From an uncultured Planctomycetia bacterium (GTDB taxonomy: Bacteria > Planctomycetota > Planctomycetia > Pirellulales > Thermoguttaceae), in the NCBI GenBank assembly GCA_963775975.1, contig CAVZKX010000002.1, forward strand, positions 2,996,502-3,060,501: a DNA stretch of 64,000 nucleotides, given 5' to 3'. Shown here piece by piece: positions 3,530-56,137 of the stretch (position 1 is its first letter; the number at the start of each line of letters is the position of its first letter). The notes beneath the pieces are model-generated. The model did no database searches. It was not told where the DNA came from and saw only the letters and a program-made list of their open reading frames with translations. A program made the position numbers and the translations under genes.

Positions 3530-3773
3530 CAGTACCCGAATCGGTACTTTTCCCCTCTTGAAACTTGGGGCGAAAAGGCGAATAATGGAAGTATCAAAAG
3601 TCAGTCTGCCGACTTGTGGCGGACAACAAAGTAAGGTTCTCTCCCATGTTCGATTCTGAGAACACTAGGCAACCCCCTTCCGGCCCGTGGCGAGTGGCAA
3701 CACCGTCCGCGCGGTCTTACTTCCGCGTTGATAGGACCGGGAGGGGCTTGCCCTTTCATGGGAGTTATCGAAC

Positions 3774-5129
3774 ATGCCAAAAATTCACGTGCATGTGGTA
3801 GCGTACCGGGATTGCAAGAACCTCGTCTTGCGGTACATCGACCCGGCGACACGCAAGCCCATTAGGGCGACGAAGTACAAAGACCCGCAGACCAGCGAAG
3901 TATTCGAGACAGGGCAGAATCGCAAGTATGCCCGTAAGCTGGCCGCGCGGTGGGAAGCTGATCTAAATGCCGGCAGGGACCAAGGCCGGTACGCGGCGAC
4001 GTGGGAGCAATTCCGCGAGCGGTACGAAGATGAGGTCGTACCGTCATTGAAAGACAGGACCGGAAATAAGATCGGCACCACGTTCAACCTTATGGAGAAG
4101 ATTCTACCGATGGTTGCGGTGGGGAAGTTGTCTGAGTTGAACGCGGAAACTCTATCTCAATTCCAGCAAGCCTTACGAGCCGGCGGCCGCGCCGAATCGA
4201 CCATCGCGGGCTACCTGGCGCACCTAAAGGCCGCGCTGAATTGGGCGGTTGAAGTGGAGTTGCTTTCCACACGCCCGGCGATTCGGAAACCGCCGAAGAG
4301 CGCCAAGAAGGGCGGCCGGAAGATGAAGGGGCGGCCCGTCACCGGAGAAGAATTCGACCGGATGCTTGCGGCCGTGCCCGCGGCCCTGGCGGAGTGGCGA
4401 CGGCGACGGCGGAACATGGCGCGAGCGGCGGCACGCAAGAAGGGACTCGCGGAACACAAGACGCAAACCGACTCCATCCCCGTGGAAATCGACCCGGCGG
4501 CCGTCGAATCGTGGCGGCACTATCTGCGGGGCTTGTGGCTGTCAGGGTTGCGGTTGGAAGAGTCCCTAAACCTCTATTGGGACCGCGACGATCGACCCCG
4601 CGTTGATTTGAGCGCGGAGCTACCCTTACTGGCAATTCCCGCAGAGTGGCAAAAGGCAGGCCGTGACACGCTCACGACCGTTACACCGGACTTCGCAAAG
4701 TTCCTTTTGCAGACCGCAGCGGACCAGCGGCGCGGCCCCGTGTTCCGGCCAATCATGCCCGGCGGCGTGGCCCGATACGACCAAGCCGGCAAGATGGTCA
4801 GTTTGATAGGCGAACTGGCCGGCGTGAAAGTCTACACTCACCCCAAGACGGGAAAAGTGAAGTATGCCAGCGCTCACGACCTGCGGCGCTCGTTTGGCAC
4901 ACGATGGTCAAGGGTGGTCAGTGCATCCGAGCTTCAAGACATGATGCGCCATGCCGACTATCACACGACGCAGAGTTACTACGTTGACCATCAGGCCGCA
5001 GACCTTGCCCGGAGTATCTACCGCAAGGCCGGCGTCGATCTAGGTACTGTTTTAGGTACTGTTGGGGCTTGTGACGATGATTCGGACGGCGCGGCGATCG
5101 TCGCAAAGTCCAATGGTTTCAACGGTTAA
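3774..5129 (+). CDS. tyrosine-type site-specific integrase
   Basis: 451-aa ORF. C-terminal catalytic signature GLRLEE, HDLRRSF (H-x-x-R) and HADYHTTQSYY (Tyr). Ends 6 nt from a tRNA 3' end. Confidence 0.9.
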   Translation: MPKIHVHVVAYRDCKNLVLRYIDPATRKPIRATKYKDPQTSEVFETGQNRKYARKLAARWEADLNAGRDQGRYAATWEQFRERYEDEVVPSLKDRTGNKIGTTFNLMEKILPMVAVGKLSELNAETLSQFQQALRAGGRAESTIAGYLAHLKAALNWAVEVELLSTRPAIRKPPKSAKKGGRKMKGRPVTGEEFDRMLAAVPAALAEWRRRRRNMARAAARKKGLAEHKTQTDSIPVEIDPAAVESWRHYLRGLWLSGLRLEESLNLYWDRDDRPRVDLSAELPLLAIPAEWQKAGRDTLTTVTPDFAKFLLQTAADQRRGPVFRPIMPGGVARYDQAGKMVSLIGELAGVKVYTHPKTGKVKYASAHDLRRSFGTRWSRVVSASELQDMMRHADYHTTQSYYVDHQAADLARSIYRKAGVDLGTVLGTVGACDDDSDGAAIVAKSNGFNG

Positions 5130-35673: not shown

Positions 35674-35754
35674 GTAGGGTGGCGTCAAACGCAGCGATGA
35701 CCCACGACTCTTGGCGATTCCTGGCGGGTCTCGTGGAACTCGACGACACCCTAC
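35674..35754. repeat. Dispersed repeat, GTAGGGTGGCGTC...ACACCCTAC (family of 16908-16976)
   Basis: Aligns with 16908-16976. The terminal CCCTAC supplies the stop codon of the minus-strand gene ending at 35751. Confidence 0.8.
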
Positions 35755-38315
35755 ATTTCTTCGGGTGGCGGCGGTCCGTCGGACGAGTCTGGCGGAGGCG
35801 CGGATTGACTTTGGGGCGATTTCTTGTCGTTCTTCTTTCTGAGGTCCTTGAAGTCGGCGTCCCGTTTGATTTTTTCCTGCCAAGCCGGTATCACCTCGTA
35901 GCGTATTGTCCCCCGCATCAAGGCTAAATACTCCTGCGCGGTGTCCTCGGAGACGAACTGTTCCCAAAGTTCCTTGAAAGGAGTCAACGAAATTATGCGG
36001 ATTACGTAGGCCTCGGACTTAGGGCCGTTCGTCGCGATCGCAACTTGACCGGGACTAAGGCTGAATACCGTCTTCATGAATTCCTCGCCGGGCTTCTCGA
36101 GGTCGCCTACCTCGCTTATGGACGGCGACTGGCCCGTCAACATGCCGCTGGTCATCCAAGTAAAGCGAGGCGGCTTTATGACCTCGATTCGTTTATCGCT
36201 CGCCGCGAGGCTAGTCAATGATTTGCCGGCGTTATCGGCCGCACTCGCCTTCTTCTTAAGATCTTCGGCGGCTTTCATCGCCGGCACGCGGGCCTGGAAG
36301 AGCTTCCACTCCTCGCGCACCTTGCTCTCGACTCCCTTGTCGTCCCACTTAGGCACGCCGCCGGCCTGGTCGTCGGTCTTCCAGAAAAGGTAAAGCTTCT
36401 TGGAAAGCGTCGAATAGCTTGGCCGGGAAACGTCAACCTTGTAGAGTGTCGTAGGACCGAAAATCTCGCCGACAGCGGGGACGAGGCGGCCTGCCTCGGC
36501 ATTGATCATATCCGACTTGCCGAACTCGGTGTCCACCAATTGCCTCAGCGAGAGCAGGCCGGTGCGATGGGCCGTCATATTGTATTTTTTGGCCAGCGCG
36601 GCGAAATCGGGCGACTTCGGCTTTTCGTCGCCCGCGTTGGTATACTTTTCGCGATAGGCGTCCAGCGTTGTGCGAACTTTCGAGATGCTATCGCTGTACT
36701 TCTTGTTGGCCAAATTCTGGCGGATAGAATCGCGCAGGCGTTCTTCCGCCGTTTTGATCGGCTTCCGCGCCTCTTTTTTGGCGGTTGCGTCAACCTTTTC
36801 CGCTTTGGCGCCCGATGACTTGGTATCCACCGGCTTTGATTCGCCGCCTTGTTTCGCGCCTGTCTGTTTCGCGCCTCCTTCTTTCACGCTGTCCGGCTTG
36901 GCATCGGACTTCGACGATGGCGTCGGCTCGGTCGCCGGCCGTTTGCTATCAACCGCCTTTGCGGCAGTTGTCGGATCCATCTTCGCCGAACTTTTCGGCT
37001 CCGCGTTTTTCTCTGCGCCTGCCGGAGGCGTTTTGTCAGCGGCCTTGTCGTCGACATACGCGACGAGGCGGAAGGGACTTGCCGGCGCGGCCAACGAACT
37101 GCCCGAAGGCTTCACTGCGGTTGACGCCGGCTTCACAGGCTCGGGCGTCTTTCCCGCCGCAGGCGTGGCATCCGGTTTTACGCCGGGAGATTTTTCCTCG
37201 GGCACTTTTATATTGGGCGCTGCCGGCGGGCTCGCGGTTGATTTTGCCGCTGGCGCGGTCGCCGGGCGACTATCCGGCTTCGCAGGCGGCGTCGGCTCCT
37301 TCAATACCGGCTCAGTTGTCGGCTTGCTCTCCAGCGGAGTTTTGCCGCCGGCCTTGGCGGCAGCGGCAGCCTTGTCTTCTTTTTCGCGGGCGTCACGGTC
37401 TTCCTTCTCCTCCTTCTGAAAGTCCTCCTTTTCGCGAGCATACTTCGTGGGGTCTTTTTCGAACTCCTTGGTGATTTCCGCCTCGGTGACTTGGCCCTCG
37501 TAGCTATCCGGGTCGGCTTCCAGATACTCGATATTGACCTTTCGCGGCACGCGGAATCCCGGCTGCGGAGAGTCGGGCGACGGCTCAATATCCTTATACT
37601 TATCAAAGAACTGTTTGAGTTCGTCGGTCGTAGGCTCTTTCACACTTTTATCGCCCAGGAATTTGCTCGTCTGCAGCACTGCCACTTCCACGGAAGCCCG
37701 CTGATGAAACCGCTTGAAATAGTCCCATCGTTCGCCCGGCGTTGCCGAACTGCCGGCCCATTCGTCGTATTGATGGCCGAGCTGCATCAAGCGAATGGCG
37801 AGCAACTGCTGGCGCATGATCTTGAAGATCTGGGGTTGATTGGCATGGACGGCTTGAATCGCGAAGTCAATCCTTCCCTGCGCATTGTCGACTTCCATCG
37901 TCATCTGCGCTAGAAGATCGTTGACCGCCTTGTCGTCGATCATGACACCCATCGATTCCGCCGTGCGCGCGTAAAGCCAGCGCTGAATGGCCGTGTCGTC
38001 CGTGTCATCTCCTAAAATCGCGTATACCGCAGCGATGATGCCGGCTGCCTTCTGCGCCTGCTGATTACTGCCCAGTTGCGCGCGAAGAAAGTCCACGAAC
38101 TGGCGGAGCAGTTTCCGCTGTTCTCGCTCGCTATTGATTTGCGATTGAGTGAGGCTTCCGTACTTCGTTTGAATGGCTGTCGGCTCTCGGCTCCCCAGCC
38201 GGTTCATGCCGATCATCGGGCCGCCTAGGAAAACGAAGGCCACGATCGCCATAATCGTAATTCCGGCCATCCAGACCTTTTGATTCTTGCGAAAAGTACG
38301 GAACGGACTAGCCAT
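35751..38315 (-). CDS. PpiD/SurA-N-like periplasmic chaperone-type protein with a long low-complexity insert
   Basis: N-terminus FRKNQKVWMAGITIMAIVAFVFLGG (membrane anchor) followed by a SurA_N-like region. Central Pro/Ala/Lys-rich region of roughly 250 aa. Confidence 0.55.
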   Translation of the reverse strand: MASPFRTFRKNQKVWMAGITIMAIVAFVFLGGPMIGMNRLGSREPTAIQTKYGSLTQSQINSEREQRKLLRQFVDFLRAQLGSNQQAQKAAGIIAAVYAILGDDTDDTAIQRWLYARTAESMGVMIDDKAVNDLLAQMTMEVDNAQGRIDFAIQAVHANQPQIFKIMRQQLLAIRLMQLGHQYDEWAGSSATPGERWDYFKRFHQRASVEVAVLQTSKFLGDKSVKEPTTDELKQFFDKYKDIEPSPDSPQPGFRVPRKVNIEYLEADPDSYEGQVTEAEITKEFEKDPTKYAREKEDFQKEEKEDRDAREKEDKAAAAAKAGGKTPLESKPTTEPVLKEPTPPAKPDSRPATAPAAKSTASPPAAPNIKVPEEKSPGVKPDATPAAGKTPEPVKPASTAVKPSGSSLAAPASPFRLVAYVDDKAADKTPPAGAEKNAEPKSSAKMDPTTAAKAVDSKRPATEPTPSSKSDAKPDSVKEGGAKQTGAKQGGESKPVDTKSSGAKAEKVDATAKKEARKPIKTAEERLRDSIRQNLANKKYSDSISKVRTTLDAYREKYTNAGDEKPKSPDFAALAKKYNMTAHRTGLLSLRQLVDTEFGKSDMINAEAGRLVPAVGEIFGPTTLYKVDVSRPSYSTLSKKLYLFWKTDDQAGGVPKWDDKGVESKVREEWKLFQARVPAMKAAEDLKKKASAADNAGKSLTSLAASDKRIEVIKPPRFTWMTSGMLTGQSPSISEVGDLEKPGEEFMKTVFSLSPGQVAIATNGPKSEAYVIRIISLTPFKELWEQFVSEDTAQEYLALMRGTIRYEVIPAWQEKIKRDADFKDLRKKNDKKSPQSQSAPPPDSSDGPPPPEEM

Positions 38316-38472
38316 AGCAGAGGTAAACCTTTTGCACGAATTGACCGGAATCTTTCATTTTAGAATACCAAGCTACAATTGCAATGGTAGACGACTTGCG
38401 TATCATAGGATGGATCGTCGATCCACGGCGAACCTTGCCGACCATCCCTTTGCACAGATTATCCAAATTAAC

Positions 38473-41302: not shown

Positions 41303-41479
41303 ATGATGGTCCGAGTGTTGCGCGAGAAGACGCCCTCGGAGCGGATTGCCATGGTTTTCGACGCCGAGCGCACCATGCGCCTGATGCTTCAGGCCGACGT
41401 TGCGTGGCGACATCCCGATTGGAATTCTCGGCGAGTCTCGGAGGAGGTAGCACGGAGGTTTCGCGGTGGATCAGGCTGA
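41303..41479 (+). CDS. small hypothetical protein, putative partner of the downstream nucleotidyltransferase-fold protein
   Basis: Start taken at MMVRVLREK. Overlaps the next gene by 14 nt. Confidence 0.4.
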   Translation: MMVRVLREKTPSERIAMVFDAERTMRLMLQADVAWRHPDWNSRRVSEEVARRFRGGSG

Positions 41480-42041
41480 CTTGCTGCGTCATGTGCTCGA
41501 CGTTCTGGAATCCCAGGGCGTGACTTACGCGCTCGTTGGCTCCTACGCCAGCGCAGTTTACGGAGAGCCGCGATTCACGCACGACATCGATATTGTCGTC
41601 CAGCTTACCCTTGAAGACGCCAATCGATTATGCGCAGCGTTCCCGCCACCCGAGTTCTATGTGAGCCACGCCGCGGCCCGCGAAGCCGTCGCGGAGCACA
41701 GCCAATTCAACGTTATTCACCCCGCTTCGGGCAACAAGATCGACTTCATGATTCCACGCAACGACGACTGGGGGCGAACGCAGTTAACGAGGAGAATTCG
41801 CCGCCCGATTCTGCCCGACCGCGAGGGATTCGTGGCGGCGCCCGAGGACGTCATTCTCGGCAAACTCTGGTATTACAACGAAGGCGGCTCCGAGAAGCAC
41901 TTACGGGACATCGCGGCGATGCTGCAAACCAGTGGGGATATGATCGACACCAATTATATCGAGCAATGGGCGCAGCGGCTTGGTTATGCCGAGCACTGGC
42001 GGTTGGTTGTAGATCGGGTACTCGACAAGTCTAATGAGTGA
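41466..42041 (+). CDS. nucleotidyltransferase-fold protein (uncharacterised family)
   Basis: YALVGSYASAVYGEPRFTHDIDIVV resembles the G-[SG]...D-x-D minimal NTase motif. GTG start. Confidence 0.55.
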   Translation: MDQADLLRHVLDVLESQGVTYALVGSYASAVYGEPRFTHDIDIVVQLTLEDANRLCAAFPPPEFYVSHAAAREAVAEHSQFNVIHPASGNKIDFMIPRNDDWGRTQLTRRIRRPILPDREGFVAAPEDVILGKLWYYNEGGSEKHLRDIAAMLQTSGDMIDTNYIEQWAQRLGYAEHWRLVVDRVLDKSNE

Positions 42042-43364: not shown

Positions 43365-44537
43365 CTACTTTGCATCGCCGTTCGCCGAGCCGGCCGCCGC
43401 ATTCGCCGCGCGGCCGACGTCATCCTTGTCGAACTGGTAGGCGATTATCGAGCCATCGGCATGAAACGCCGCGCCGGGCAGCGCGATGTACATCGTCGCG
43501 GGAATCTTCGCGGGCATTTCGAAGACGAGATGCACCTGGATGCGGTCCTTCGTGACCGCCTTCATGTCTTCGCCCTTCTTTTGCGGAACCTGTCCCAACA
43601 ACTCAAACGAATTTCCCTTGCCCTCCTTCTCGTCGTCCTTGAGGAACACCGCCTTCCTCAGCTTCTCGTCGGCCCAACTCGTCAAATCGACGTTCTTTTT
43701 CGCCCCATCCTTGAGCTGGAGATTGACCGGCACGATGAGGACTTCCGCATCGTTGTCGGTGGTCTTGATGCCAGTCGGCGGAGCGCCGCGGAACGGCTTA
43801 AGCACCATGACATCCACGTCGCCCAGCATGGTCGTTTCGACGGAGGCCTTCTTCCAGCTTGTCGGCCACTTTGCCTGCACCGCTTTTTGCTCGCCGGGTT
43901 TCTTTTCGGCGGCGGGCTTGGCTGCGCTGTCCTCGGCATTCAAGACGTTTAATGCCTTCGGGTCTTTGTTCGGATCAGGCTGCGGCGAACTGAGCCAGCC
44001 ATTCGCCAGGGCCACAATGAACACGACCACGCCGACGGTCAGGCCGCCGCCGATCACGCTCATGAGGATTATCGTTACCTTTTTCTGCTCGGCCTTCTTA
44101 AGGCTCTGCATGCCGGATTTCATCTTGCGGCGCGAGACCATCACCGGCGCCGCTTCAAATTCGAAGTTATCGAGTTGCACGCCGTGCTTGCGCGTGCCGC
44201 CCAGCGCAAGCTCCTGCGGCAGCTCGGCCGGCGGTGGAGGCGCCTCGGCGGCCGCCGGCAAAGGGCCGGCCTTGGCGGCGGGCGCGGCGTCCGACTTCGC
44301 CGCCTTGGGCAGAGGCTTGGCGGATGCGGGCGCGGCCTTGCCTTGTGCGGAACTTTGCGCGGCGGCCGGCGCAAACAGGCCCTTGATTCTGCCCGCCGGC
44401 ACCCACGGACCTTCGCTGCCGCGTCGAACCAGGTGCTCGGCCTTCAACTGGCCCTTCGCCACTAACGTCTTGAGCTGCTGGTTGTTGAGCGGACCAACCT
44501 TCTTTTCACCGATTTTGCAGAACCAATCAGCGGACAT
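43365..44537 (-). CDS. GYF_2 (DUF4339)-domain membrane protein
   Basis: Start taken at MSADWFCKIGEKKVGPLNNQQLKTLVAKGQL..GPWVPAG. One TM helix and a C-terminal beta-rich domain. Confidence 0.6.
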   Translation of the reverse strand: MSADWFCKIGEKKVGPLNNQQLKTLVAKGQLKAEHLVRRGSEGPWVPAGRIKGLFAPAAAQSSAQGKAAPASAKPLPKAAKSDAAPAAKAGPLPAAAEAPPPPAELPQELALGGTRKHGVQLDNFEFEAAPVMVSRRKMKSGMQSLKKAEQKKVTIILMSVIGGGLTVGVVVFIVALANGWLSSPQPDPNKDPKALNVLNAEDSAAKPAAEKKPGEQKAVQAKWPTSWKKASVETTMLGDVDVMVLKPFRGAPPTGIKTTDNDAEVLIVPVNLQLKDGAKKNVDLTSWADEKLRKAVFLKDDEKEGKGNSFELLGQVPQKKGEDMKAVTKDRIQVHLVFEMPAKIPATMYIALPGAAFHADGSIIAYQFDKDDVGRAANAAAGSANGDAK

Positions 44538-45206
44538 TTCTGGAAGCTCGGACTTTTCGGCGCCCGGCCGGCTAGCGTGTATGAGAGGTAGCGGTGCCCA
44601 GCGTGATTGACGCCTCGCGAATACATTTACTTTAGCGGCAAAGACGGTCGAATTCCAGGCGGGGCGGCAAAAGCCATGATCGCGCGGCGTCGTGACTGTC
44701 GGATCGTTTAGCCCGGGGCCATCGGCGACGGCGATTCCCGCATTGTCTGTCGCCGATGGCTCCGGGTTAAACAATGCGCTGCATCAAGAAATACAGCCGG
44801 CCATCGTGGCAGATCCAAGCTCGCTGAACGCGGGTGTCGGCCCTGGGTAAACCGACACAAGGGAAGAGAATGCGTGTCTAAGCTAAGCTGATTATGACTG
44901 CACGATGGCCGGCTTGACCGTGTCAATTGAAAAGTATGCTAGGTTACTTTCCTTAGACGTGCTTGGTTTCTGTGCATTCATTGCCTCGCAGGTGGTCATG
45001 TTCTTGTGATTCTGTGCCTCAAACGATGATTTCATGTGGAACGCAAACGTCGTGCCGCTCCCGAATTTGAAGTCTTAGTCTAGCCGCCGTCCGCCTACGG
45101 AACATATACTGGCAAGGTTCATAACCGCTATGTGCTTCGAAAATGATTGCCGCGCATGTTAATATCACATACGGGCGGTTTGTAAAAACATTTACCGCGA
45201 CAACCG

Positions 45207-46300: not shown

Positions 46301-46789
46301 TTACGACTGCCCGAACTCGCAAACCGCCGAGCAGCCGGGCGATTCTTCCAACTCGATTCGCAGCCACGCCGGCCGCGGAAGTCCATTCGCCGCAAGGCGT
46401 TCCAGCAGCCGCTCGGCCAGATAGCTGGCCATGAGCTCGACCGTCGTGCTGGCGATCGGCAATAACCGGCATTCCTCGCGCGGAAAGACCCAGCGCCGAT
46501 CGCCAAATCGTACCTCGACTTCTTCTTCGCCTGCCGCGACATGGATCTGCCCGCTCCGCGCCGGCAGGAGCACGGCGTGATCGATCTCAGCCAGGATCGA
46601 CTTCATTGCGCGGAGCACGGCGGCAAAGTCGATTACGCAGTCCGTCTCGTCCAAGGGCCCGCTGAGATCGACCGCCACACGGTAGTTGTGGCCGTGCAAC
46701 GGCTCGCAGAGGCCGCCCGGCAAAACGATAAAGTGCGCGGCGCTATAAATCAGCTTGTCGCCGGCGATGCGGACGGAGTAGTCAGGCAT
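46301..46789 (-). CDS. 6-pyruvoyl-tetrahydropterin / 6-carboxytetrahydropterin synthase family protein
   Basis: CEPLHGHNYRV and DFAAV..I...DH pattern of the PTPS/QueD fold. Confidence 0.85.
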   Translation of the reverse strand: MPDYSVRIAGDKLIYSAAHFIVLPGGLCEPLHGHNYRVAVDLSGPLDETDCVIDFAAVLRAMKSILAEIDHAVLLPARSGQIHVAAGEEEVEVRFGDRRWVFPREECRLLPIASTTVELMASYLAERLLERLAANGLPRPAWLRIELEESPGCSAVCEFGQS

Positions 46790-46818: not shown

Positions 46819-48676
46819 CTAGTGACCGGGCGGGGCGCTGTCAGGCAGGGACGGGTCGGGCCGCGGGGATGGCCTGCCACGAGGCGGGGAAGATCCGCGT
46901 TCCCCTCCACCGCGCGGATTGAAACGCCTGCCCTCACCGCCGCCCGCACTTGGTCGATCAGGCTCCTTCGTCGCGTCATTCCAGTCCTTGCTCTCGCCCA
47001 TCTCGTCGTGGATGACCAACTCGCCATTGTCGCTCAGAACGAGCATTGCGCCGGGGGGATGGGGGCTCTTTTCCCGATCTCGCGGAGACAAGTATTCGCC
47101 GCCTCCCGTAACGTCCACAAGAATGGAATTCGTTTCCGCTTTGGGTTCTGGAGTCGTGCTATCTTCGGATTTCGGGTGCCAGGTGGCACCCTCAAAGGTA
47201 GAGTCGATCGGCGTGCCTCGGAATATAGTGGCCTTTTCGGTCCACTTATTCGCACCGGTATCCTTATCCCAGATGATTATGCGGACCTGGCCAGTGATTT
47301 CAGCGGGGCTCGGGCTTTTTGCCGGTTCAACGGTGCCCGCGATCAGCCGGTTGTCGCTTGGCAATCTGGTTGACTGACAGGCATTCGACCAGCCCTTGTC
47401 ATCAATCTTCAAGTCGGCGACTTGGTTTTTCGCGTCGGGCTGGTCCTTGCCCGGCGTGACGGATAACGTGCTTTGACTGCTCTGCTTAGGATCAAAAAGC
47501 GCCGATTCCGGAAGGCCGTTGTTCGGATTTTGCAGCAGCGGAAAAACCCGGTAGGTGTATTGCTTGCCCGGTTCTACGTCGAAGTCGAAATAGCGCAGCA
47601 AATAATACGGAGGAACTTGAGCCGCTTCGTCAACGGACTTATTATTGGTGGCCTCATCCCTGGCAAGGACAGTTTTTTTACCGAATAGTCCATTGCCGCC
47701 GCCTTGATCGCTGCCGGGGCGGACCGCATCTGGCGGGGGACGCCGCAGATTCTGGCGATAAGCGCCCTCGCCACGTCCCGACGGCAACCTTCCGCGAAAA
47801 CCTTCGCCTGCACCGGGTCGAATTGTTGGAGGTTGGCCCGCTCCACCGCCGCCTAGCGCCTGATCTCTCTCTTCCTTCGGAATGAGCTTGATCTCCGCCG
47901 GATGAGCCACCTCGTCGCCCCATTCGCCGGTTGTCCGCGGCGGCAATTGCGACGCCAAGCCCGGAAAAATGTACTTGGAATCAACCACTTCCAGCGAGCC
48001 GCCGCTCCATTTTTCCAACTGGTGGCGTAGGAAATCCGCGTCGCAGATCGTTACCGCCTTATCCCAATTCGGCTCGCTTGCGGCGCCGGGGACAACCTCC
48101 GCGCTGTACCAGGAACCCGACGTATTCCGGCGTGTCGTTGTTGCCCTCGAAACCGGCGGTCTCGAAATTCCTCTTGTACTCGGCCAATTGTTTGGCGTAG
48201 GGGACCAGTCCAGTGACGACGACCCAGCGCTGGCCGACCGTGCCGGCGGCGTTGGCGTTGCCGCTCAGCGCGCCGCGGCCCGCGACTGCCCGCAACTCCT
48301 CGACGGGAATAACTGCCGGTGTTCCGCGCGGGTTCTTCGGCGCAATGACCGCCGGATCCATGACGGCGTCAAACTTGTATTTGCCGGGATCTTCAGGCAT
48401 TTTGAATCGCTCGATCTCGCTGGCGTAGGCCGTAATAGGCGCTTCGGTAGCGGGCGACTTATTCAGGGGACCGGTCACCATGGTCTTTTGCGCCGCCTGG
48501 ACCGCATCGGAGAGGCTCTTCGGATCCTTCTTATAGCTATCGTTGGCTTGCAGCATGACGGCGCTATAGGTGAAGTAGAGGAACAACAGGCCGACGACGC
48601 CGATCACGATCTTTTCGGTGTGGTCGATGAAAAACTGCTTGATCGCCTTCGCGTCGAGTTTGCTTTTTTTCTTCAT
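46819..48676 (-). pseudogene. large single-TM envelope protein, third gene of the PilM-like operon (split into two frames as assembled)
   Basis: ORFs 48059..48676 (MKKKSKLD plus TM) and 46819..48018. The downstream frame is open and coding-like across the gap (..AEVVPGAASEPNWDKAVTICDADFLRHQLEKW..). The upstream ORF ends in Arg-rich junk. Confidence 0.6.
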
Positions 48677-48776
48677 GGACGTGCTCCTTGCGGTTTCCGG
48701 TACACTCCAAGTGATTGCCCATCGCAGCGGGAGTGTGCCGGACACATGAGCGTGCGATTAGTTGGAATGAAATGGT

Positions 48777-50491
48777 TCATTTCGCTTGCGTTGCGGTTGG
48801 CGGAGTTGCCGTCCCGGCAGGTGCGGCCGGGCTTGCTGCCGGTGTTGCCGGCGCAGCGGCGGCCGCAGGCGCCGCCCCAGTTGCCGTTGTCCCCGTCGCC
48901 ACCGCGCCGTTTGTCGACTGTGGCGTGGGCGGGTTGTAAATGTAGATGACGCCTTGAATCTCGACCGGAACCGGCGGAGCACTCGGGTCCGCTGACTCTT
49001 CGCTGTAACTGAATTCGTTGTTCTGAGACGCGTTGCCGGCGCCCTGCCCGCCCAGCCGATTCATCATCCCGTGCCCGCCGAACCCGGACATCCCGCGTCG
49101 GCCGCCTGCCGGCGGACGCCCCAGTTGCGGAACGGCGGCCGCGCCGGCAGGAGCGTCGCCGCCCGTGCTACTTCCGTTGACGTCAAATGCGGGCGGCTTC
49201 TCGGCGAGAATCCGCACGGAGCGGACATCGATCCGCATGTTCGAATTGGCGCACTCGACCAATAGCCGTGGAATGGCCCTTTGTTCCATGACCACCCGCA
49301 GATTAACGGGCATCATGCGGAACTCCTGGTTCGGCTGTTGCTTGGGATCGGCCAGCGGCTTGCCGTTGTTATCTACATAGCGGCCGACAAGCAGCGAGGC
49401 CGCCGAGCCGCCGCTGGTGGCGCCGGCGGCCGCACTTTGAAAACCCATGCCGCGGCCGGCGCTTGGACCCGGTTGTATCGTCGGTGCTTGGGTGCTTGCC
49501 GCCGAACCGCCATCGCTCGACAATACGAACACCGCGTTCTCGCAGGCAGCCCAGCTCTGCGCGGCCTCGTTGCCGATCTCCAATGCCTGAATCTCCTTGA
49601 TCCGGGCGTCCTTGTGGGTGCCCGGCGATTGATAATTCTTCGCACTATGCTTGGGATCATTCCCCACATCATTCGTATTGCGAATGACTTTCAAAAGCGC
49701 CTCGTAGACCCAGACATTTTCCTGGGCAACGATGACATCCGGCGTGGTTGGGATGTCGTTCCAATTGCGGAAATAGTCCATCAAGTTGCCCGCGTTGGCC
49801 CAGTCGACAACGCCTTTCGGCTGTTTGGAGGGATCGTCGCCTTGCATAGGACCATTCCGACCGAAGCGCTGGCCTTCACCCCCGCCCGCATTCGATCCAG
49901 GCTCTCCCGATGTTCGCAACTCGATCATCTCAAAGAGGCTGGGAAAAACGTCTTTGATCTCGTCGCGGTATTTCAGGCGATAGACTTGCTTTAGTTCGTA
50001 CTGATCCTTGTTGGGAGCGTCCGCCGGCGGTGATTCGATGTCCTCGATCTTGTGGTTCCAAACCTTCCAAAAATCTTCTTCAAAGCGAACCTGTTCTTCG
50101 TGGTTGTTCGGATAGATGGGCGGCAATTCAAAGGTCGTGCGCTGGCCGTCAAAGAGCTGCTCGGCGGCCTTGGATACGTTCCCGGTAAGGCTCTCGCTCG
50201 GGCTTTTGATTCCGGATGCCTTGATTACTTCGTCCGACGCGCCGGCAAACTCGCCGTCCGGCGCAGAACAACGCCTTTGATGAACGTCTCACTTGGATGA
50301 TCGCGTTTACCGGTGATCGCAGACATCGAAGTGAACTGGCCTTCGATCTCCTTTTTGCACTTGTCGTACTGTTCCGCCCTATCGGCGGTGGCCATGTACC
50401 ATGTGCCGAACGTGATGAGGACGATCAAAGACAGGAGAATCCAGAAATGGTACTTCTTGAAGACTTCAAGAGCTGCGCGGACTTTTTCCAT
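48777..50491 (-). pseudogene. large single-TM envelope protein, second gene of the PilM-like operon (split into two frames as assembled)
   Basis: ORF 50225..50491 (TM helix HFWILLSLIVLITFGTWYMA) plus ORF 48777..50126, whose frame is open upstream to 50288 (..PDGEFAGASDEVIKASGIKSPSESLTGNVSKAAEQLFDGQRTTFE..). Confidence 0.6.
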
Positions 50492-50686
50492 GATTATCGG
50501 CTCCGTCGTAAGTTAATTGATACTATCGTTAGGGCTTTGCCGCTGGCGCGGTAGCCGCCGGCACAACTGCCGGCGCAGGCGCGGCTGTCGCTGTCGCCGC
50601 CGTTCCACCGGTCGCGCCGGCAACTTGATCTCCGGCGGACTTTGGCTGCCAAATGAATTGCACGCGGAACTGGAAACGGTCGACTG

Positions 50687-52720
50687 TTACTTTCCTTTCC
50701 TCATCGGGCGCGCCCCGCCAATACCGCCGAGCGTCATGGGGCCTGGCGCCAACGGACCGTGCCCAGGTCCAATGTTGTTGCCCGGACCGAATACGGGATT
50801 TACGGAGTTCTCACTCCGCTTCGGCCCCGGAATGACAATCTCCTCTTTGTCGTTGGGCGCGGGCTTCACAAGTACCGGGTAGGAAACGCCCAGGTCGTGC
50901 ATCTCCTTGCTCGCAAGCTTCGTCAACAGCGTGCTGTAAACGTACTGTGTGCCGACTTCCTGCTGTTTCTTGTCATTGTGGAAATGCTTGCCGTATATCT
51001 GCACGATCATGCCCGGTCCCGTAGGGCCATCGGCTGCGGCTATTCCACCAGTGCCAGCACTTCCCGACGATGCCTCGGGCGAATCGCTCAAAAACGGGGC
51101 GCCGGGTTGGCCGGGAAATGGATGGTACCACGGCTTCACCAGCGCGAACCACTTCGATGCGTCGTCGATCTGCTGCGAATCGACGTTCGTTATCAGCAGT
51201 TGCTCTCGATCCATAATCTCTTTGCGCAGCTTCTCTGGATCGGTCGAACTGGGCATCGGCTTCGCATGAATTTTGCCGTCTTTGCCCGGGTAGGGCGGCA
51301 GGCACGTGTCGATCGCCGTCAGGAACTTCAGCCACTGCGAGCGGTTTTGCAGGTTTTTCACCAGGCGGTCGCCTTTGCCCGTAGTCTCCTCGAATTTCTT
51401 CTTGGCCGCTTCATAGTCGCCGATCAGTTGTTTTGACTTGCCATCGGCCGCCTTCGCCTCTCCTTCCGGCTTCTCCCAAATCGCGGGCCGCACCGCATTG
51501 AATTGCAGGGCATAAGCCGCGTAGCTGACCGTGCAGGCCAGCATGACCATCGCCGCCGCCGCCACCGCCCACGGCTTCTTGCGGCGGATCAGCCGGTCCA
51601 TCGAGATTTCCTTCGGCAGCAGGTTCGTCTTGAGGCCGCCGCTCTGAAGGCCTTGCAGGCACAGCCCGTAGCAGACGCCGAACGAGAGGATATTGTCCTT
51701 GAACGCCGGCGTGGCCAGCACCTCCGCGCCCACCAGGCCGCGGAACGACTCGACCCGCTCGATTTCTTCGCCGAGACTCTGCGCCAAGTAGCGCCGCAGT
51801 CCGGGCAATTTGAAGGCGTTTCCCATCGCCACCACGCGGCCGATCTTGGCGTTGCGGTCGAGGTTGCTGAAGAATCCAATCGAGCGCTGCAGCTCCGTCT
51901 GCAAATCGTTGAACACCGGCCGCATCGCCTGGAACACCGCCTTGGGGTCCTGCGCCGTCGTGGCATTCCGCTTCAAGTGCTCCGCCTTGGCAAACGTGAG
52001 CTTCATCTCCTTGGTCAGCGACTTGGTGAAGTGATTGCCGCCCAGCGGCACGCTCCGCTGCCAGACCTTGAACCCGTTCGTCACGACGAGGTCTGTCGCG
52101 TCCGTGCCCAGCGAGATTATCACAATCGATTCCGGCGGGTCGTCCGGATCGTAGGCCTCCGGGCTGGGTAGGTCTTGCAGCATGTCGAAGACGACATAGT
52201 TGTAAAGCGAGAGCGGCGCCAACTGCACGATATCGACTTCGATGCCCGCCTTGACGAACGGGTCCAGCGCCCGAAAAACGGCGTCGCGCTTCATGGCGAA
52301 AAGCCCGATTTCGGTCTCCAGCACGAAGCCCGATTCCTCGCTTCCGCCGCCTAGCCGCTGGTAGTCCCAAATCACGTCGTTCAGATCGAAGGGGATCTGT
52401 TGCCGGGCCTCGTAACGGACGATGTCCGGGATCTTTTTGGCCTCGACCGGCGGCAACTTGATGAATCGGGCCAGGCCGCTCTGGCCAGCCACGGATACCG
52501 CCACGCGGTCGTTGTGAACCTGGTTCCGAGAAAGGAACTGTTTCAGGGCGTCGGCGATCAACTCGGCTGGATTGGCGTCGGGCTGCGTCAAGATTTTGGG
52601 ATACTCGATGTAGTCGAACGCCTCGACCACGATCTTGTCCGGGTCATCGTGTGCCCGGCAGCGCATCGCCTTCAACGCGCACTGGCCAATATCAATTCCC
52701 CATACGCTACCGCTTGCCAT
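50687..52720 (-). CDS. pilM: PilM-like actin-fold protein fused to a TM and periplasmic region
   Basis: WGIDIGQCALKA, IVRYEARQQIPFDLNDVIWDY, then TM WAVAAAAMVMLACTVSYAAYAL. The native C-terminus probably continues in another frame to 50529. Confidence 0.85.
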   Translation of the reverse strand: MASGSVWGIDIGQCALKAMRCRAHDDPDKIVVEAFDYIEYPKILTQPDANPAELIADALKQFLSRNQVHNDRVAVSVAGQSGLARFIKLPPVEAKKIPDIVRYEARQQIPFDLNDVIWDYQRLGGGSEESGFVLETEIGLFAMKRDAVFRALDPFVKAGIEVDIVQLAPLSLYNYVVFDMLQDLPSPEAYDPDDPPESIVIISLGTDATDLVVTNGFKVWQRSVPLGGNHFTKSLTKEMKLTFAKAEHLKRNATTAQDPKAVFQAMRPVFNDLQTELQRSIGFFSNLDRNAKIGRVVAMGNAFKLPGLRRYLAQSLGEEIERVESFRGLVGAEVLATPAFKDNILSFGVCYGLCLQGLQSGGLKTNLLPKEISMDRLIRRKKPWAVAAAAMVMLACTVSYAAYALQFNAVRPAIWEKPEGEAKAADGKSKQLIGDYEAAKKKFEETTGKGDRLVKNLQNRSQWLKFLTAIDTCLPPYPGKDGKIHAKPMPSSTDPEKLRKEIMDREQLLITNVDSQQIDDASKWFALVKPWYHPFPGQPGAPFLSDSPEASSGSAGTGGIAAADGPTGPGMIVQIYGKHFHNDKKQQEVGTQYVYSTLLTKLASKEMHDLGVSYPVLVKPAPNDKEEIVIPGPKRSENSVNPVFGPGNNIGPGHGPLAPGPMTLGGIGGARPMRKGK

Positions 52721-53288
52721 GATGGATTTCTCTCCTTAAGTGGACGCATGGCGGATCGACCGCATCGTCCACGATCGCACGTTCAACTGCCGCGCTATGC
52801 AGTCGCGCACTGCGCAGCGTCAAGCGCCTGATGCTCTGTTTCCGCACTCCTTCTGCTGTTCCTGACGGCTCCCATGCCTCAATAAGGCGCATCCAGAGTG
52901 GACCGGAAAAGAGCCATCTGCCTCTACTACATAATCTATCGCAACCGGGCAGCGGGTGTCAATCAAAAATCGCCCACGCAGAACACGAATTTATACCAAC
53001 CCGCCGTTGACAATAGCCCGGCTAGTGGGGGGTCCGACAGCGGCGGCTATACACTCTTAGGCGTGCGACGTTCGAGCGCCTTCAATTCCGTTCCTTCGCT
53101 GCAATCCAACTACTCGTTACCGTTGGAAAGAGGCTGCCCGGCGTTCGGCGGGACGTTGGTGCTGTCCCGCCACCCGCGCCGAAATTTGTCCTACTATTCC
53201 TATGACCCGTTAGAGGAAATCAGGCCCCGCCGCCAGTCGAGTCGAAAAAATGACTGAACGGCGGCTGCGGCCGCGCTAACCAAGAGAT

Positions 53289-54266
53289 ATGGCAACGACC
53301 TGTGCGGCAGAGAATGTAGTGGAAAATGGCGCCTTGATGGCCGTCGGCGTGGAGACGCTGCGCACATCGGGCGTGCTGCCGTTCGATCTCTACTTCTACG
53401 GTGACGGACCGAAACGCCCAGTTCTTTACCGCGAAAAGACACTGCCGGTTGGCGACGACGATCTGGCTCGGCTGTTGGAGCGCGGCGTGCGGACGCTGTA
53501 TATCCTGCAAGGCGAGTCCGCTTCGTATCGCGAGTATCTCCGCGAGACTCTGCTGGCCAATCCGGACATTCCGCCCGTGCAGCGCTACCAGGTGCTCCGC
53601 GAGGCGACCCGCTCCGTGCTCAGCGAAGCCTTGCACAAGGGCGACAACGAGACGGCTGTCCGCGTGACAAGCGAACTCAGCGACGGCCTGGTACAGACCG
53701 TTTGCAATTCGCAAGCCGTGCTCAACGACCTGCTGCGGGTGATGTCGCACGATTACAGCATCTTCACGCACGCCGTCAACGTGGCCACGCATTGCCTGCT
53801 GCTGGCCCGGCAGATAGGCATCAGCGGCGATCAGGAATTGATGCAGATCGGCCAGGGGGCGCTGCTGCACGACATCGGCCTGCAGGGCGTGCCGCGGAAT
53901 ATCATCGACAAGCCGGAAAAGCTCACCGAGCGCGAGCGGCGGATCGTGCAGCAGCACACGACGCACGGCTTTCAGGAGCTTTCCCGCCGCCCCGAACTGA
54001 GCTGGCCGCAGTTGATGATCGTTTACAGCCACCACGAGCGCTGCGACGGCCGCGGATATCCGGTGGGACTGGTGCGCTCGGAAATCCACGAATACGCGCG
54101 GATCTGCGCCATCGCCGACGTATATGAAGCTTTGTGCCGCGACCGTCCCTATCGACGGGCATCGCGGCGGAACGACGTTTTGGAGTATCTCGACCGCCAG
54201 GCGGGCCGAGCTTTTGACGAGGAGATGACGCGATGCTGGATAGCGGCGGTCGGCAGGAAGAAATAG
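53289..54266 (+). CDS. HD-GYP domain protein (c-di-GMP phosphodiesterase type)
   Basis: HAVNVATH, LLHDIG, HHERCDGRGYP. Confidence 0.88.
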   Translation: MATTCAAENVVENGALMAVGVETLRTSGVLPFDLYFYGDGPKRPVLYREKTLPVGDDDLARLLERGVRTLYILQGESASYREYLRETLLANPDIPPVQRYQVLREATRSVLSEALHKGDNETAVRVTSELSDGLVQTVCNSQAVLNDLLRVMSHDYSIFTHAVNVATHCLLLARQIGISGDQELMQIGQGALLHDIGLQGVPRNIIDKPEKLTERERRIVQQHTTHGFQELSRRPELSWPQLMIVYSHHERCDGRGYPVGLVRSEIHEYARICAIADVYEALCRDRPYRRASRRNDVLEYLDRQAGRAFDEEMTRCWIAAVGRKK

Positions 54267-54672
54267 GGCGGTGGATCTTTTCGCTGCCCTGCCAGGTGCA
54301 GTTTCCGCCCAAGCTCCGCGAGGAGTTGGAACGGACCGGCGCGGTCCCCGTGCCCAGCGACGACGTGCGGCGGCACCGCCGCATCTACTGCCGCGGCGAA
54401 AAGCACCGCGCGGCCCTGGAACTTCGGCAGTCGCTGCCGGCGCTTTCCCGGCCCACGGCCTGGCATTGCGTCTACACGAGCGATTTCTCCAAGAGCGGTT
54501 GCGGGTTCATCCACAGCGCGATCCTCTATCCGGGCGAACGGCTGCGGATGGTTCTCTTGACCGTGCGCAGCGGCAAGTTGAAGTGGCCTGGTGCCGGCGG
54601 TTGGACAAGCATTGCTATGCCGTCGGCGGGCGATTCGTGGCAGACCCCGCTGGCGCGGTCGATGAGGAGTGA
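54233..54672 (+). pseudogene. PilZ-domain protein (one-nucleotide frame break as assembled)
   Basis: RRHRR ... DFSKSGCGF in the frame of ORF 54233. The C-terminal strands EVAWCRRLDKHCYAVGGRFV* lie in the frame of ORF 54271..54672. Confidence 0.6.
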
Positions 54673-54676
54673 CATT

Positions 54677-56137
54677 ATGACCACCGGACCAGCAGACGCC
54701 GCGGGCCAACTGGAGCAATTGCTTCAAGGTTTGGCCATGCTGGCCGAAGACACGGACTCGGACGCGCCTGTGCACGACCTGGCCCCCTCGACCGCCGCGT
54801 CGCGGCCCGCCTTGGCCCGCGACGGCGAGTTGACCGCCGGCTCCGATTCCGAAGCAATTCCGGCCGCGGGCAATCGATTTCTTCCCGCCGCTCCGCGGAG
54901 CCTGGAGGAGACGGGCATCCGCCAGTCTGATATCGAGAGCATCATCCTCCGCCTGATGCGGCTTCGCGGTACGGCGACGGGCATGGAGATCGCGCAGCAC
55001 ATCGGCTTGCCCTTTCCGCTGACGGAGAAGGTGCTCCACTCGCTTAAGAACGAACGCTTGCTCGTCTTCCGCAACTCCGCCCAGCTCAGCGATTACCTCT
55101 ACGAAATCACCGATCAGGGCCTGGAGCGCGCCGGACAGTTGTCGGCCCAGTGCGGCTATTGCGGGGCCGTGCCCGTCGCGCAGGACGACTACACGGCGAG
55201 CGTCGCCGCACAGTCGCTCTGCCACACCCGCCCCTCGGCCGAAGCCGTCCGCCGCGCGCTGGCCGATCTTACCGTCGATCGGGAAATGATCGCTCGGCTG
55301 GGCCGCGCGATCGCTTCCGGCTGGGGGCTTTTCCTGCACGGTGCGCCGGGCAACGGCAAGACGAGCATCGCCGAGCGCATCACGGCGGTTTTCGGCACGA
55401 GCATCTGGATTCCACGCGCGATCAACGTCTGGGGCGAGATTGTCCGCATTTATGACCCGAGTTGCCACGAAGAGCTTCCACTGGCCAAGGGCGAGCAGAT
55501 CATCGATGACGAGCGGCTCGACCACCGCTGGGTCCGCATCCGCCGGCCGACGATCGTCGTCGGCGGCGAATTGACGATGGACAATCTGGAAATAACCGTC
55601 AACAAAGATACGGGCGTCGCCGAAGCGCCGCTGCAAATGAAGAGCAACTGCGGCACGCTCGTGATCGACGACTTCGGCCGCCAACGCATCTCTCCGCAGA
55701 AGCTGTTGAACCGCTGGATCGTGCCCCTGGAAGAGCGGCATGACTATCTCGGCCTGCCGAGCGGGCGGAAGATCCGCGTGCCTTTCGACCAGTTCATCGT
55801 CTTTTCAACGAACTTGGAGCCGCGGGACCTGGTGGACGAAGCGTTTCTGCGCCGCATCCCGTACAAGATTGAAGTCCAAGACCCGACGCCCGAACAATTT
55901 CGCGAACTATTCGAGCAGACGTGCCAGCGGCAGGGCGTCGGATTCGACGCGGGGGCGCTGGATTACTTGCTCGCCGAGCACTACGCCGCCGGCCGGCGGC
56001 CGATGCGATTCTGCCATCCCCGCGACCTCGTGCATCAGATCGGCATCTTCTGCCGCTTCCGCAAATTGGCGCCCGCGGTAAGCCGCCAAGCCATCGACGC
56101 CGCGGCGACGGATTATTTCTCCGTGATGGGGACTTAG
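54677..56137 (+). CDS. AAA+ ATPase with N-terminal winged-helix-like region
   Basis: ATG 4 nt after the PilZ stop codon. Walker A GAPGNGKT, Walker B LVIDDFGRQ, FSTNLEPRDLVDEAFLRRIPYKI. Not a GspE/PilB-type ATPase. Confidence 0.75.
   Translation: MTTGPADAAGQLEQLLQGLAMLAEDTDSDAPVHDLAPSTAASRPALARDGELTAGSDSEAIPAAGNRFLPAAPRSLEETGIRQSDIESIILRLMRLRGTATGMEIAQHIGLPFPLTEKVLHSLKNERLLVFRNSAQLSDYLYEITDQGLERAGQLSAQCGYCGAVPVAQDDYTASVAAQSLCHTRPSAEAVRRALADLTVDREMIARLGRAIASGWGLFLHGAPGNGKTSIAERITAVFGTSIWIPRAINVWGEIVRIYDPSCHEELPLAKGEQIIDDERLDHRWVRIRRPTIVVGGELTMDNLEITVNKDTGVAEAPLQMKSNCGTLVIDDFGRQRISPQKLLNRWIVPLEERHDYLGLPSGRKIRVPFDQFIVFSTNLEPRDLVDEAFLRRIPYKIEVQDPTPEQFRELFEQTCQRQGVGFDAGALDYLLAEHYAAGRRPMRFCHPRDLVHQIGIFCRFRKLAPAVSRQAIDAAATDYFSVMGT

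Follow-up and report, generated by a model that had tools for sequence, protein, structure and literature searches.

The DNA analyzed here is a 64-kb stretch (the window) of a 4.29-Mb contig from an uncultured Planctomycetia bacterium of the Thermoguttaceae. The list of open reading frames (ORFs) and their translations revealed three adjacent, co-oriented genes for membrane proteins on the minus strand at positions 46819-52720, the first of which encodes a PilM-type protein. Once the frames are repaired, as described below, the predicted products comprise 729 (gene 1), 571 (gene 2) and 619 residues (gene 3), and the intergenic gaps measure 37 nt between genes 1 and 2 and 100 nt between genes 2 and 3. 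A preliminary description of this DNA had placed three co-oriented minus-strand genes at this locus and had estimated the two large partners of PilM at about 570 and 620 residues. The ORFs and frames bore out the arrangement, and the measured lengths of 571 and 619 residues agree with the estimate.

A hydropathy scan detected one hydrophobic segment per protein, located at residue 384 in gene 1, residue 10 in gene 2 and residue 22 in gene 3. The single N-terminal transmembrane (TM) helix previously attributed to genes 2 and 3 was thus confirmed. A σ70-like promoter match (TTGACA-18-TAGATT, 10/12; positions 52933-52962, minus strand), which is a consensus match only, lies approximately 210 nt 5′ of the gene 1 start. 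Between the operon genes, a consensus scan found no convincing terminator.

Gene 1 encodes a PilM domain fused to a periplasmic tail

Gene 1 (50529-52720, minus strand) starts with the ATG at 52720 (MASGSVWGIDIGQCALKA...). The deposited ORF stops early at 50687 (677 residues), and the FRVQFIWQP strand together with the Ala/Thr/Pro tail is found in another frame that ends at 50532. The full frame was obtained from the ORFs by tblastn-based repair and its product was compared with Pfam and NCBIfam. Residues 8-356 (51653-52699, minus strand) match the PilM_2 domain (PF11104) with an E-value of 3e-30, and the protein scores 137.1 bits with the NCBI pilM model TIGR01175, which has a cut-off of 133. 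By these scores gene 1 is a true PilM, and the actin-fold PilM head that had been assigned to it stands.

The best NCBIfam match of gene 1 was NF045709, 'Amuc_1101 family PilM-like pilus complex protein' (E=1.5e-55, residues 43-471). As this alignment runs to residue 471, the match reaches past the PilM domain, through the TM helix and into the periplasmic part. Judged by a score of 189 bits versus an equivalog cut-off of 650, gene 1 is related to the Amuc_1101 family and not a member of it.

The single TM helix (residues 384-402, WAVAAAAMVMLACTVSYAA; 51515-51571, minus strand) was located by the hydropathy scan and by an alignment of 26 homologues, in which a conserved juxtamembrane motif, NLLPxEI..KKPW, precedes the helix. 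The domain order is a cytoplasmic PilM actin-like domain, the TM helix and about 325 periplasmic residues. In the same alignment the periplasmic tail displays a helical stretch, an R..WL.LL.A...LP motif, a beta-alpha-beta...beta arrangement and the terminal sequence F.F.vQF.WqP. The tail yielded no family match, and PF05137 (PilN) was absent at E≤0.1; topology, motif and alignment layout suggest that it is PilN-like. Identity to 22 intact homologues amounts to 63-92% (median 75%) in the PilM domain and to 24-53% in the periplasmic parts.

Gene 2 displays a candidate PilO-like fold

Gene 2 (48777-50491, minus strand) was delineated from its frames, homologues and alignment. It starts with the ATG at 50491 and is split into an 88-residue piece with the TM helix and a piece in another frame at 50288-48780. 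After the TM helix at its N-terminus, the repaired bitopic protein is predicted to have a long helix, then a helical domain and a ferredoxin-like core that is interrupted by disordered Gly/Ala/Pro inserts. Its sequence ends with VEIQGVIYIYNPP followed by an Ala/Thr/Pro tail. No Pfam family recurred among 27 family members at E≤10, and no NCBIfam model matched at E≤0.01. A profile built from the family alignment found chance-level matches only among PDB sequences, and no PilO.

An AlphaFold model was calculated for the intact homologue P0002, which is 86% identical, using a 27-sequence alignment. Its mean pLDDT (predicted local distance difference test) value is 68, with confident cores parted by four disordered segments. 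In a Foldseek comparison with the PDB, matches 1-14 consisted only of Amuc_1100 of Akkermansia muciniphila (6lad, 6kny, 6laf), PilO of M. xanthus (3jc8_Oa) and PilO of P. aeruginosa (2rjz, 5uvr). E-values ranged from 0.15 to 0.8, probabilities from 0.44 to 0.91 and target-normalised TM-scores from 0.27 to 0.56; the top match was 6lad_D (Amuc_1100; E=0.15, probability 0.90). Weak singly but uniform together, these matches of the predicted model lend weak support to a PilO-type fold. The preliminary description had regarded a match of the large proteins to known PilN, PilO, PilP or PilQ as an argument against its own proposal; such a match was obtained for the fold of gene 2, at weak E-values, and not at the sequence level.

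The same description had stated that genes 1 and 2 end alike. The terminal strand motif is indeed similar (VQFIWQP and IIYIYNPP), but nothing beyond it could be aligned, since a profile-profile comparison (hhalign) of the gene 1 tail with gene 2 joined 15 columns with a probability of 8% and an E-value of 0.004. This 15-column terminal strand motif does not demonstrate paralogy of the PilN/PilO type between the gene 1 tail and gene 2.

Gene 3 is a bitopic protein in the position of PilP

Gene 3 (46819-48676, minus strand) was characterized by its frames, an alignment, AlphaFold and a profile search. It starts with the ATG at 48676 and changes frame near 48100, the second piece extending over 48264-46822. 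In an AlphaFold model of the homologue P0038 (pLDDT 74), a TM helix precedes a beta-beta-alpha-beta-beta-alpha domain, which a disordered Gly/Pro/Arg linker of about 75 residues connects to a C-terminal beta-sandwich region. In the alignment, this C-terminal region harbors the invariant motif LLRYFDFDVEPGKQYxYRV. The Gly/Pro-rich disorder noted earlier is reflected in segments with pLDDT<50 in the models of both gene 2 and gene 3.

No Pfam family recurred among 26 gene 3 family members at E≤10, PF04351 (PilP) matched none of them, no NCBIfam model matched at E≤0.01, and the family-alignment profile gave no meaningful match among PDB sequences. The view that genes 2 and 3 contain no recognizable domain is therefore upheld by both Pfam and NCBIfam. 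A profile-profile comparison of gene 3 with gene 2 aligned only the TM region. Gene 3 possesses a TM helix and no lipobox, and so differs from the PilP lipoprotein; its sole PilP-like trait is the position between the PilO-like gene and the secretin gene described below. From this position, a PilP/GspC-like role may be proposed.

The operon is conserved and linked to a secretin gene in many relatives

A gene 2 profile scan of species-representative genomes identified 163 genomes, and the best 80 loci derive from Planctomycetia, Pirellulales and Thermoguttaceae metagenome-assembled genomes (MAGs). A word-indexed protein search returned only about 35 relatives per protein, on the same contigs; an exhaustive profile search yielded 3872 cluster representatives of gene 3. 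Together, the 163 genomes with gene 2 and the 3872 representatives of gene 3 indicate that the families are large but unnamed.

Gene 3 follows gene 2 in 80 of 82 non-redundant loci, the remaining two of which end at a contig edge. Upstream of gene 2, the PilM fusion was present on the same strand in all loci with enough flanking sequence (70/70). Synteny of the three genes across relatives, which the preliminary description had proposed to examine, was thereby established. Downstream sequence of at least 2.5 kb was available for 64 loci. In 29 of these, and in 32 loci overall, the next gene after gene 3 encodes a secretin. The linked secretin comprises 1350-1500 residues and contains TPRs and, at its C-terminus, a Secretin domain (PF00263, E=1.3e-21). 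Furthermore, directly 5′ of PilM in locus L086 lie a coding sequence for the C-terminal end of a PilB/GspE-type ATPase and a gene of the T2SSF (PilC) family. In another genome (L088) the same secretin family occurs alone, beside dnaA-dnaN-gyrB, which demonstrates that both linked and unlinked arrangements exist.

In the clade of the window (L001, L005-L019 and L028) a PTPS gene stands in the place of the secretin gene. In the window itself this PTPS/QueD-like gene (46301-46789, minus strand) begins 29 nt 3′ of gene 3 and occupies the position held by the secretin gene in more distant relatives. It is a conserved neighbor within this clade and probably not part of the machine.

Some further observations were made on these loci. 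The linked secretins (L022-L084; e.g. L040:10023-14531 and L030:11373-15479) have an N-terminal TPR-containing region, share about 50% mean identity across genomes and end with an invariant acidic tail (...VTPRIIIQEEEEE). The records of two loci carrying the operon name an 'uncultured Acidobacteriaceae bacterium' (L018) and a 'Candidatus Nealsonbacteria bacterium' (L066); these contigs are probably mis-binned. A conserved same-strand upstream gene of 946 residues, which appeared in a first clustering, was discarded because it really consisted of antisense and alternative-frame ORFs. These originated from a divergent minus-strand gene of about 870-990 residues (with weak GH57/GH38 Pfam matches in L003) and from a cytidylate kinase gene.

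Comparison with type IV pilus and type II secretion platforms

The operon resembles the PilMNOP/PilQ genes of the type IVa pilus, as known from P. aeruginosa and M. xanthus, in several respects. A cytoplasmic PilM heads the operon, bitopic proteins with one TM helix and a periplasmic part come next, gene 2 displays weak Foldseek matches to a PilO-type fold, and the secretin gene is the last gene of the operon in many relatives. In contrast to the pilus proteins, the planctomycete PilM is covalently fused to its candidate PilN-like partner. The planctomycete partners are approximately three times larger, contain long disordered Gly/Pro/Ala inserts and match no PilN, PilO or PilP model. Gene 3 is TM-anchored, whereas PilP is a lipoprotein, and it carries an extra N-terminal domain. 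The secretin of the relatives differs by its length of 1350-1500 residues and its TPRs, and it is not adjacent in this genome. In the Thermus thermophilus DNA translocator/pilus operon (PilM-PilN-PilO-PilW-PilQ), PilM and PilN are separate proteins, and a lineage-specific protein, PilW, occupies the place of gene 3 between PilO and the secretin.

The GspL-GspM-GspC/GspD proteins of the type II secretion system fit the architecture better than PilM/N/O/P. In GspL, one TM helix joins an actin-like cytoplasmic domain to a ferredoxin-like domain in the periplasm; GspM is bitopic and PilO-like, and GspC is TM-anchored and reaches the secretin. However, the cytoplasmic domain of gene 1 belongs to the PilM family by sequence (TIGR01175) and has no GspL/T2SSL match. 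Genes 2 and 3 lack Pfam or NCBIfam matches to GspM and GspC, no PDZ domain or coiled coil was recognized in gene 3, and no gsp genes are located nearby. Measured against PilMNOPQ and GspL/M/C/D, logic and topology are thus common, but sequence-family tests fail for every component except PilM.

The triad as probable platform of a secretin-dependent machine

On the basis of the PilM identity, the topology, the synteny, the secretin linkage in relatives and the PilO-type fold matches, we propose that the triad forms, in the inner membrane, the alignment platform for a type IV filament machine that depends on a secretin and belongs to either the type IV pilus or the type II secretion kind (probability about 0.6). 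Because a secretin gene adjoins the triad in many related genomes, it is best seen as a divergent, oversized version of a PilM/N/O/P-type platform and not as a secretin-less novelty.

From topology and position we infer the following contacts. In gene 1, one TM helix would connect the cytoplasmic PilM module to a periplasmic domain that is PilN-like, with coiled-coil and alpha/beta parts, in the manner of GspL. Gene 2 would be the PilO/GspM-type partner pairing with gene 1 in the periplasm. Gene 3 would be TM-anchored in the place of PilP/GspC and extend its long disordered linker outward to the beta-sandwich domain, which would dock on the periplasmic part of the giant TPR-secretin. Owing to the large protein sizes and the linkers rich in Gly and Pro, the complex could bridge the wide periplasm of Planctomycetes. 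Genes for the secretin, the ATPase, the platform protein and the pilins would lie elsewhere; for the pore and motor genes of this genome such a location is probable. The filament might be a pilus, a secretion pseudopilus or an uptake device.

Several results weigh against this proposal. When approximately 40 main ORFs of the window were compared with Pfam, no Secretin, T2SSE, T2SSF, N_methyl or peptidase A24 domain was detected, and a secretin profile run over six frames of the 64 kb found no match. A search for this genome's own secretin with a 20-sequence profile was also negative, but this search was non-exhaustive, missed most loci that demonstrably carry the gene and is hence uninformative. 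Gene 2, gene 3 and the gene 1 tail show no sequence match to PilN, PilO, PilP, GspL, GspM or GspC models even at E≤10, and none of the Foldseek matches of gene 2 (E 0.15-0.8) is significant individually. The full-length gene 3 model retrieved only generic Ig/Fab beta-sandwich matches from Foldseek, with probabilities <0.2. Moreover, all three operon genes are frameshifted in this assembly.

The Pfam comparison, the six-frame secretin profile and a motif scan, in which the prepilin N-terminal motif was absent from the window, confirm the earlier statement that no secretin, pilin, prepilin peptidase or PilB/PilT/PilC gene lies in the 64 kb. The conclusion drawn from it, namely that the triad does not belong to a type IV pilus-type machine, is not supported, given the secretin gene that follows gene 3 in 29 of 64 related loci and the PilB and PilC genes in one. 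As the same secretin family is unlinked in another genome, absence from a 64-kb window says little about the genome as a whole.

Frameshifts in the operon

Comparison with intact homologues by tblastn located exactly one frameshift in each gene, each in a G/C-rich context on the minus strand. In gene 1 (50705-50714) one base is missing from the G/C run GGCGGGGCGCGCCC relative to the intact homologues. In gene 2 (50246-50255) the sequence reads CGC-CG-GAC, while the intact frame requires three bases between CGC and GAC. The frameshift in gene 3 (48098-48102) was mapped by tblastn to CAGCGCGGAGG. The deposited products accordingly comprise 677, 449 and 399 residues. The repaired lengths fit those of intact homologues, which range from 701 to 827 residues for gene 1, from 532 to 592 for gene 2 and from 576 to 631 for gene 3.

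These frameshifts might be real and the operon a recently inactivated remnant with non-functional products of 677, 449 and 399 residues. In line with this, three breaks are crowded within 5.9 kb, the remaining large genes of the window cover their Pfam models in full, and at most two further candidate frame breaks were found in the remaining 58 kb. Furthermore, an independent assembly of a strain whose gene 2 is 99% identical (P0275, run ERR12040025) reads CGC-C-GAC at the gene 2 site and is also out of frame. The indel length at this site differs between the two assemblies, however, which looks more like a base-calling problem. The repaired frames contain no internal stop over 1919 codons, repaired gene 2 is about 86% identical to intact P0002, and in tblastn segments the identity between gene 3 and its counterpart in L001 amounts to 75-93%. 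The nearest relatives are nanopore 'MFD' long-read MAGs, which are often broken in the operon and in neighboring genes (L012, L017-L019, L022, L043 and L048); short-read-style assemblies with k141 or NODE contig names are mostly unbroken. Recent inactivation is therefore rather unlikely.

A methylation-linked base-calling artefact at a shared GCGC context was also considered. However, the window contains 580 GCGC sites, so that such an artefact cannot alone explain three breaks confined to the operon. The only other frame-break candidates of the window are two pairs of abutting plus-strand ORFs in different frames (2769-3086/3080-3526 and 21028-21267/21239-23077), both of coding-like composition and without a Pfam match.

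Relationship to the Akkermansia MUL2 cluster

The closest studied relative of the operon is the Amuc_1098-1102 cluster of Akkermansia muciniphila. There, Amuc_1098 belongs to the secretin family, Amuc_1101 is FtsA/PilM-like and the others are uncharacterized envelope proteins (PMC5332112). Amuc_1099-1102 now bear the name MUL2; Amuc_1101 carries the annotation PilM and Amuc_1102 the annotation pilin-like (PMC13174399). Both organisms belong to the same Planctomycetes-Verrucomicrobia-Chlamydiae (PVC) superphylum, and the order of PilM-like (Amuc_1101), PilO-fold (Amuc_1100), uncharacterized (Amuc_1099) and secretin gene (Amuc_1098) is shared (PMC5332112; PMC13174399). Like gene 1, Amuc_1101 extends beyond the PilM domain. 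On the other hand, Amuc_1100 comprises about 317 residues and gene 2 571, the pilin-like Amuc_1102 lies upstream in Akkermansia whereas the window contains no pilin motif, and the secretin gene is not adjacent in the window. The two systems are only distantly related, the scores falling well short of the cut-offs.

By analogy, the machine might be the planctomycetal counterpart of MUL2 (Amuc_1099-1102) and serve to capture macromolecular glycans and import them into an enlarged periplasm, rather than motility, adhesion or secretion. This explanation addresses what the machine does and can coexist with the platform structure. It is favored by the best NCBIfam match of gene 1 (the Amuc_1101 family), the best structural match of gene 2 (Amuc_1100) and the gene order Amuc_1101-1100-1099-1098 (PMC5332112). 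In addition, PMC11131199, with reference to Boedeker 2017, mentions dextran uptake by Planctomycetes via crateriform structures. However, the scores with the Amuc families lie far under the equivalog cut-offs, not only for gene 1 (189 versus 650 bits) but also for the secretin of the relatives (NF042912; 62 bits, cut-off 750). NCBIfam gave no match for genes 2 and 3 at E≤0.01, and no pilin-like gene is located 5′ of PilM in the window. We consider a specific role as MUL2 counterpart quite unlikely.

A possible role of the triad as a scaffold without a secretin

Finally, a PilM/N/O-type scaffold might have been re-used without a secretin, for instance to build a flagellar cage like that of Campylobacter and Helicobacter, or in division or envelope remodelling in the FtsZ-less Planctomycetes, which is essentially the idea put forward in the preliminary description. 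The window contains no secretin or pilus gene, PTPS and not a secretin follows gene 3 in its clade, and the PilM domain is unusually conserved (median identity 75%). Because flagella are known to co-opt PilMNO homologues (PMC10823254), a secretin-independent role is formally conceivable. It is nevertheless very unlikely given the secretin gene immediately downstream in 29 of 64 related loci, the PilB-PilC genes upstream in one and the unlinked occurrence of the same secretin family in another genome, which makes an unlinked secretin a simpler reading than an absent one.

A more speculative arrangement concerns only the clade of the window, which retains an intact triad although PTPS stands in the place of the secretin gene. 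Here the triad may form the inner-membrane base of the planctomycetal fibre and crateriform apparatus for macromolecule uptake, distantly homologous to MUL2 and with another outer-membrane partner or none. The oversized, linker-rich periplasmic proteins would then be adaptations to span the enlarged periplasm. We regard this arrangement as highly improbable.

Other genes in the window

Genes of the window identified by Pfam include those for MutL, TopA, a GH3 enzyme, NfeD and a transporter of the major facilitator superfamily (MFS). Divergent from the PilM promoter region, an HD-GYP-type protein is encoded at 53280-54263 on the plus strand (HD_5, E=5e-27). It is followed by a gene for a 639-residue protein (54218-56134, plus strand) that has the Walker A sequence GAPGNGKT and a PilZ-like N-terminal sequence (RRHRR...DFSKSGCGF); this protein has no Pfam match and only a weak match to the IteA anti-phage ATPase. 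The two proteins are possibly a cyclic di-GMP pair. The gene pair is not conserved beside PilM in relatives.

An AAA_25 (RepA/RecA-like) ATPase gene (109-1461) and a gene for a recombinase of the phage integrase family (3735-5126), both on the plus strand and with small unassigned ORFs between them, may represent an integrated mobile element. A fragment of an AbiEii-type nucleotidyltransferase toxin gene (41451-42038, plus strand; E=4e-5) lies between topA and the ACPS gene. On the minus strand, an 867-residue protein with a weakly SurA_N-like N-terminus is encoded at 35754-38354, where the AT skew of the window has its strongest excursion (-0.27 at 36-38 kb). A 472-residue protein with a GYF_2 domain, a long Ala/Pro/Lys-rich region and a TM segment is encoded at 43368-44783 (minus strand). 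Its counterparts in L001 and L002 were called at about 285 residues, and the start giving 472 residues may be overcalled.

Implications

No paper describing this operon came up in literature searches on planctomycete PilM or on crateriform structures combined with secretin. The operon is real, strongly conserved and unannotated, and most likely represents an odd-looking form of a known kind of system. For genome annotation, the deposited proteins of 677, 449 and 399 residues are truncated calls, and genes 2 and 3 stand for large families that bear no Pfam or NCBIfam name. If true, the assignment of gene 2 to the PilO type and of gene 3 to the PilP position would put a name on an operon that is near-universal in Pirellulales-type Planctomycetia, and would assign it a testable role. 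It would also tie this operon to Amuc_1098-1102 (MUL2) of Akkermansia, the only relative in the PVC superphylum with functional data, which concern glycan uptake and host signalling. Through the MUL2 link, the three genes would become candidate genes for the genetically undefined fibres and crateriform uptake structures of Planctomycetes.

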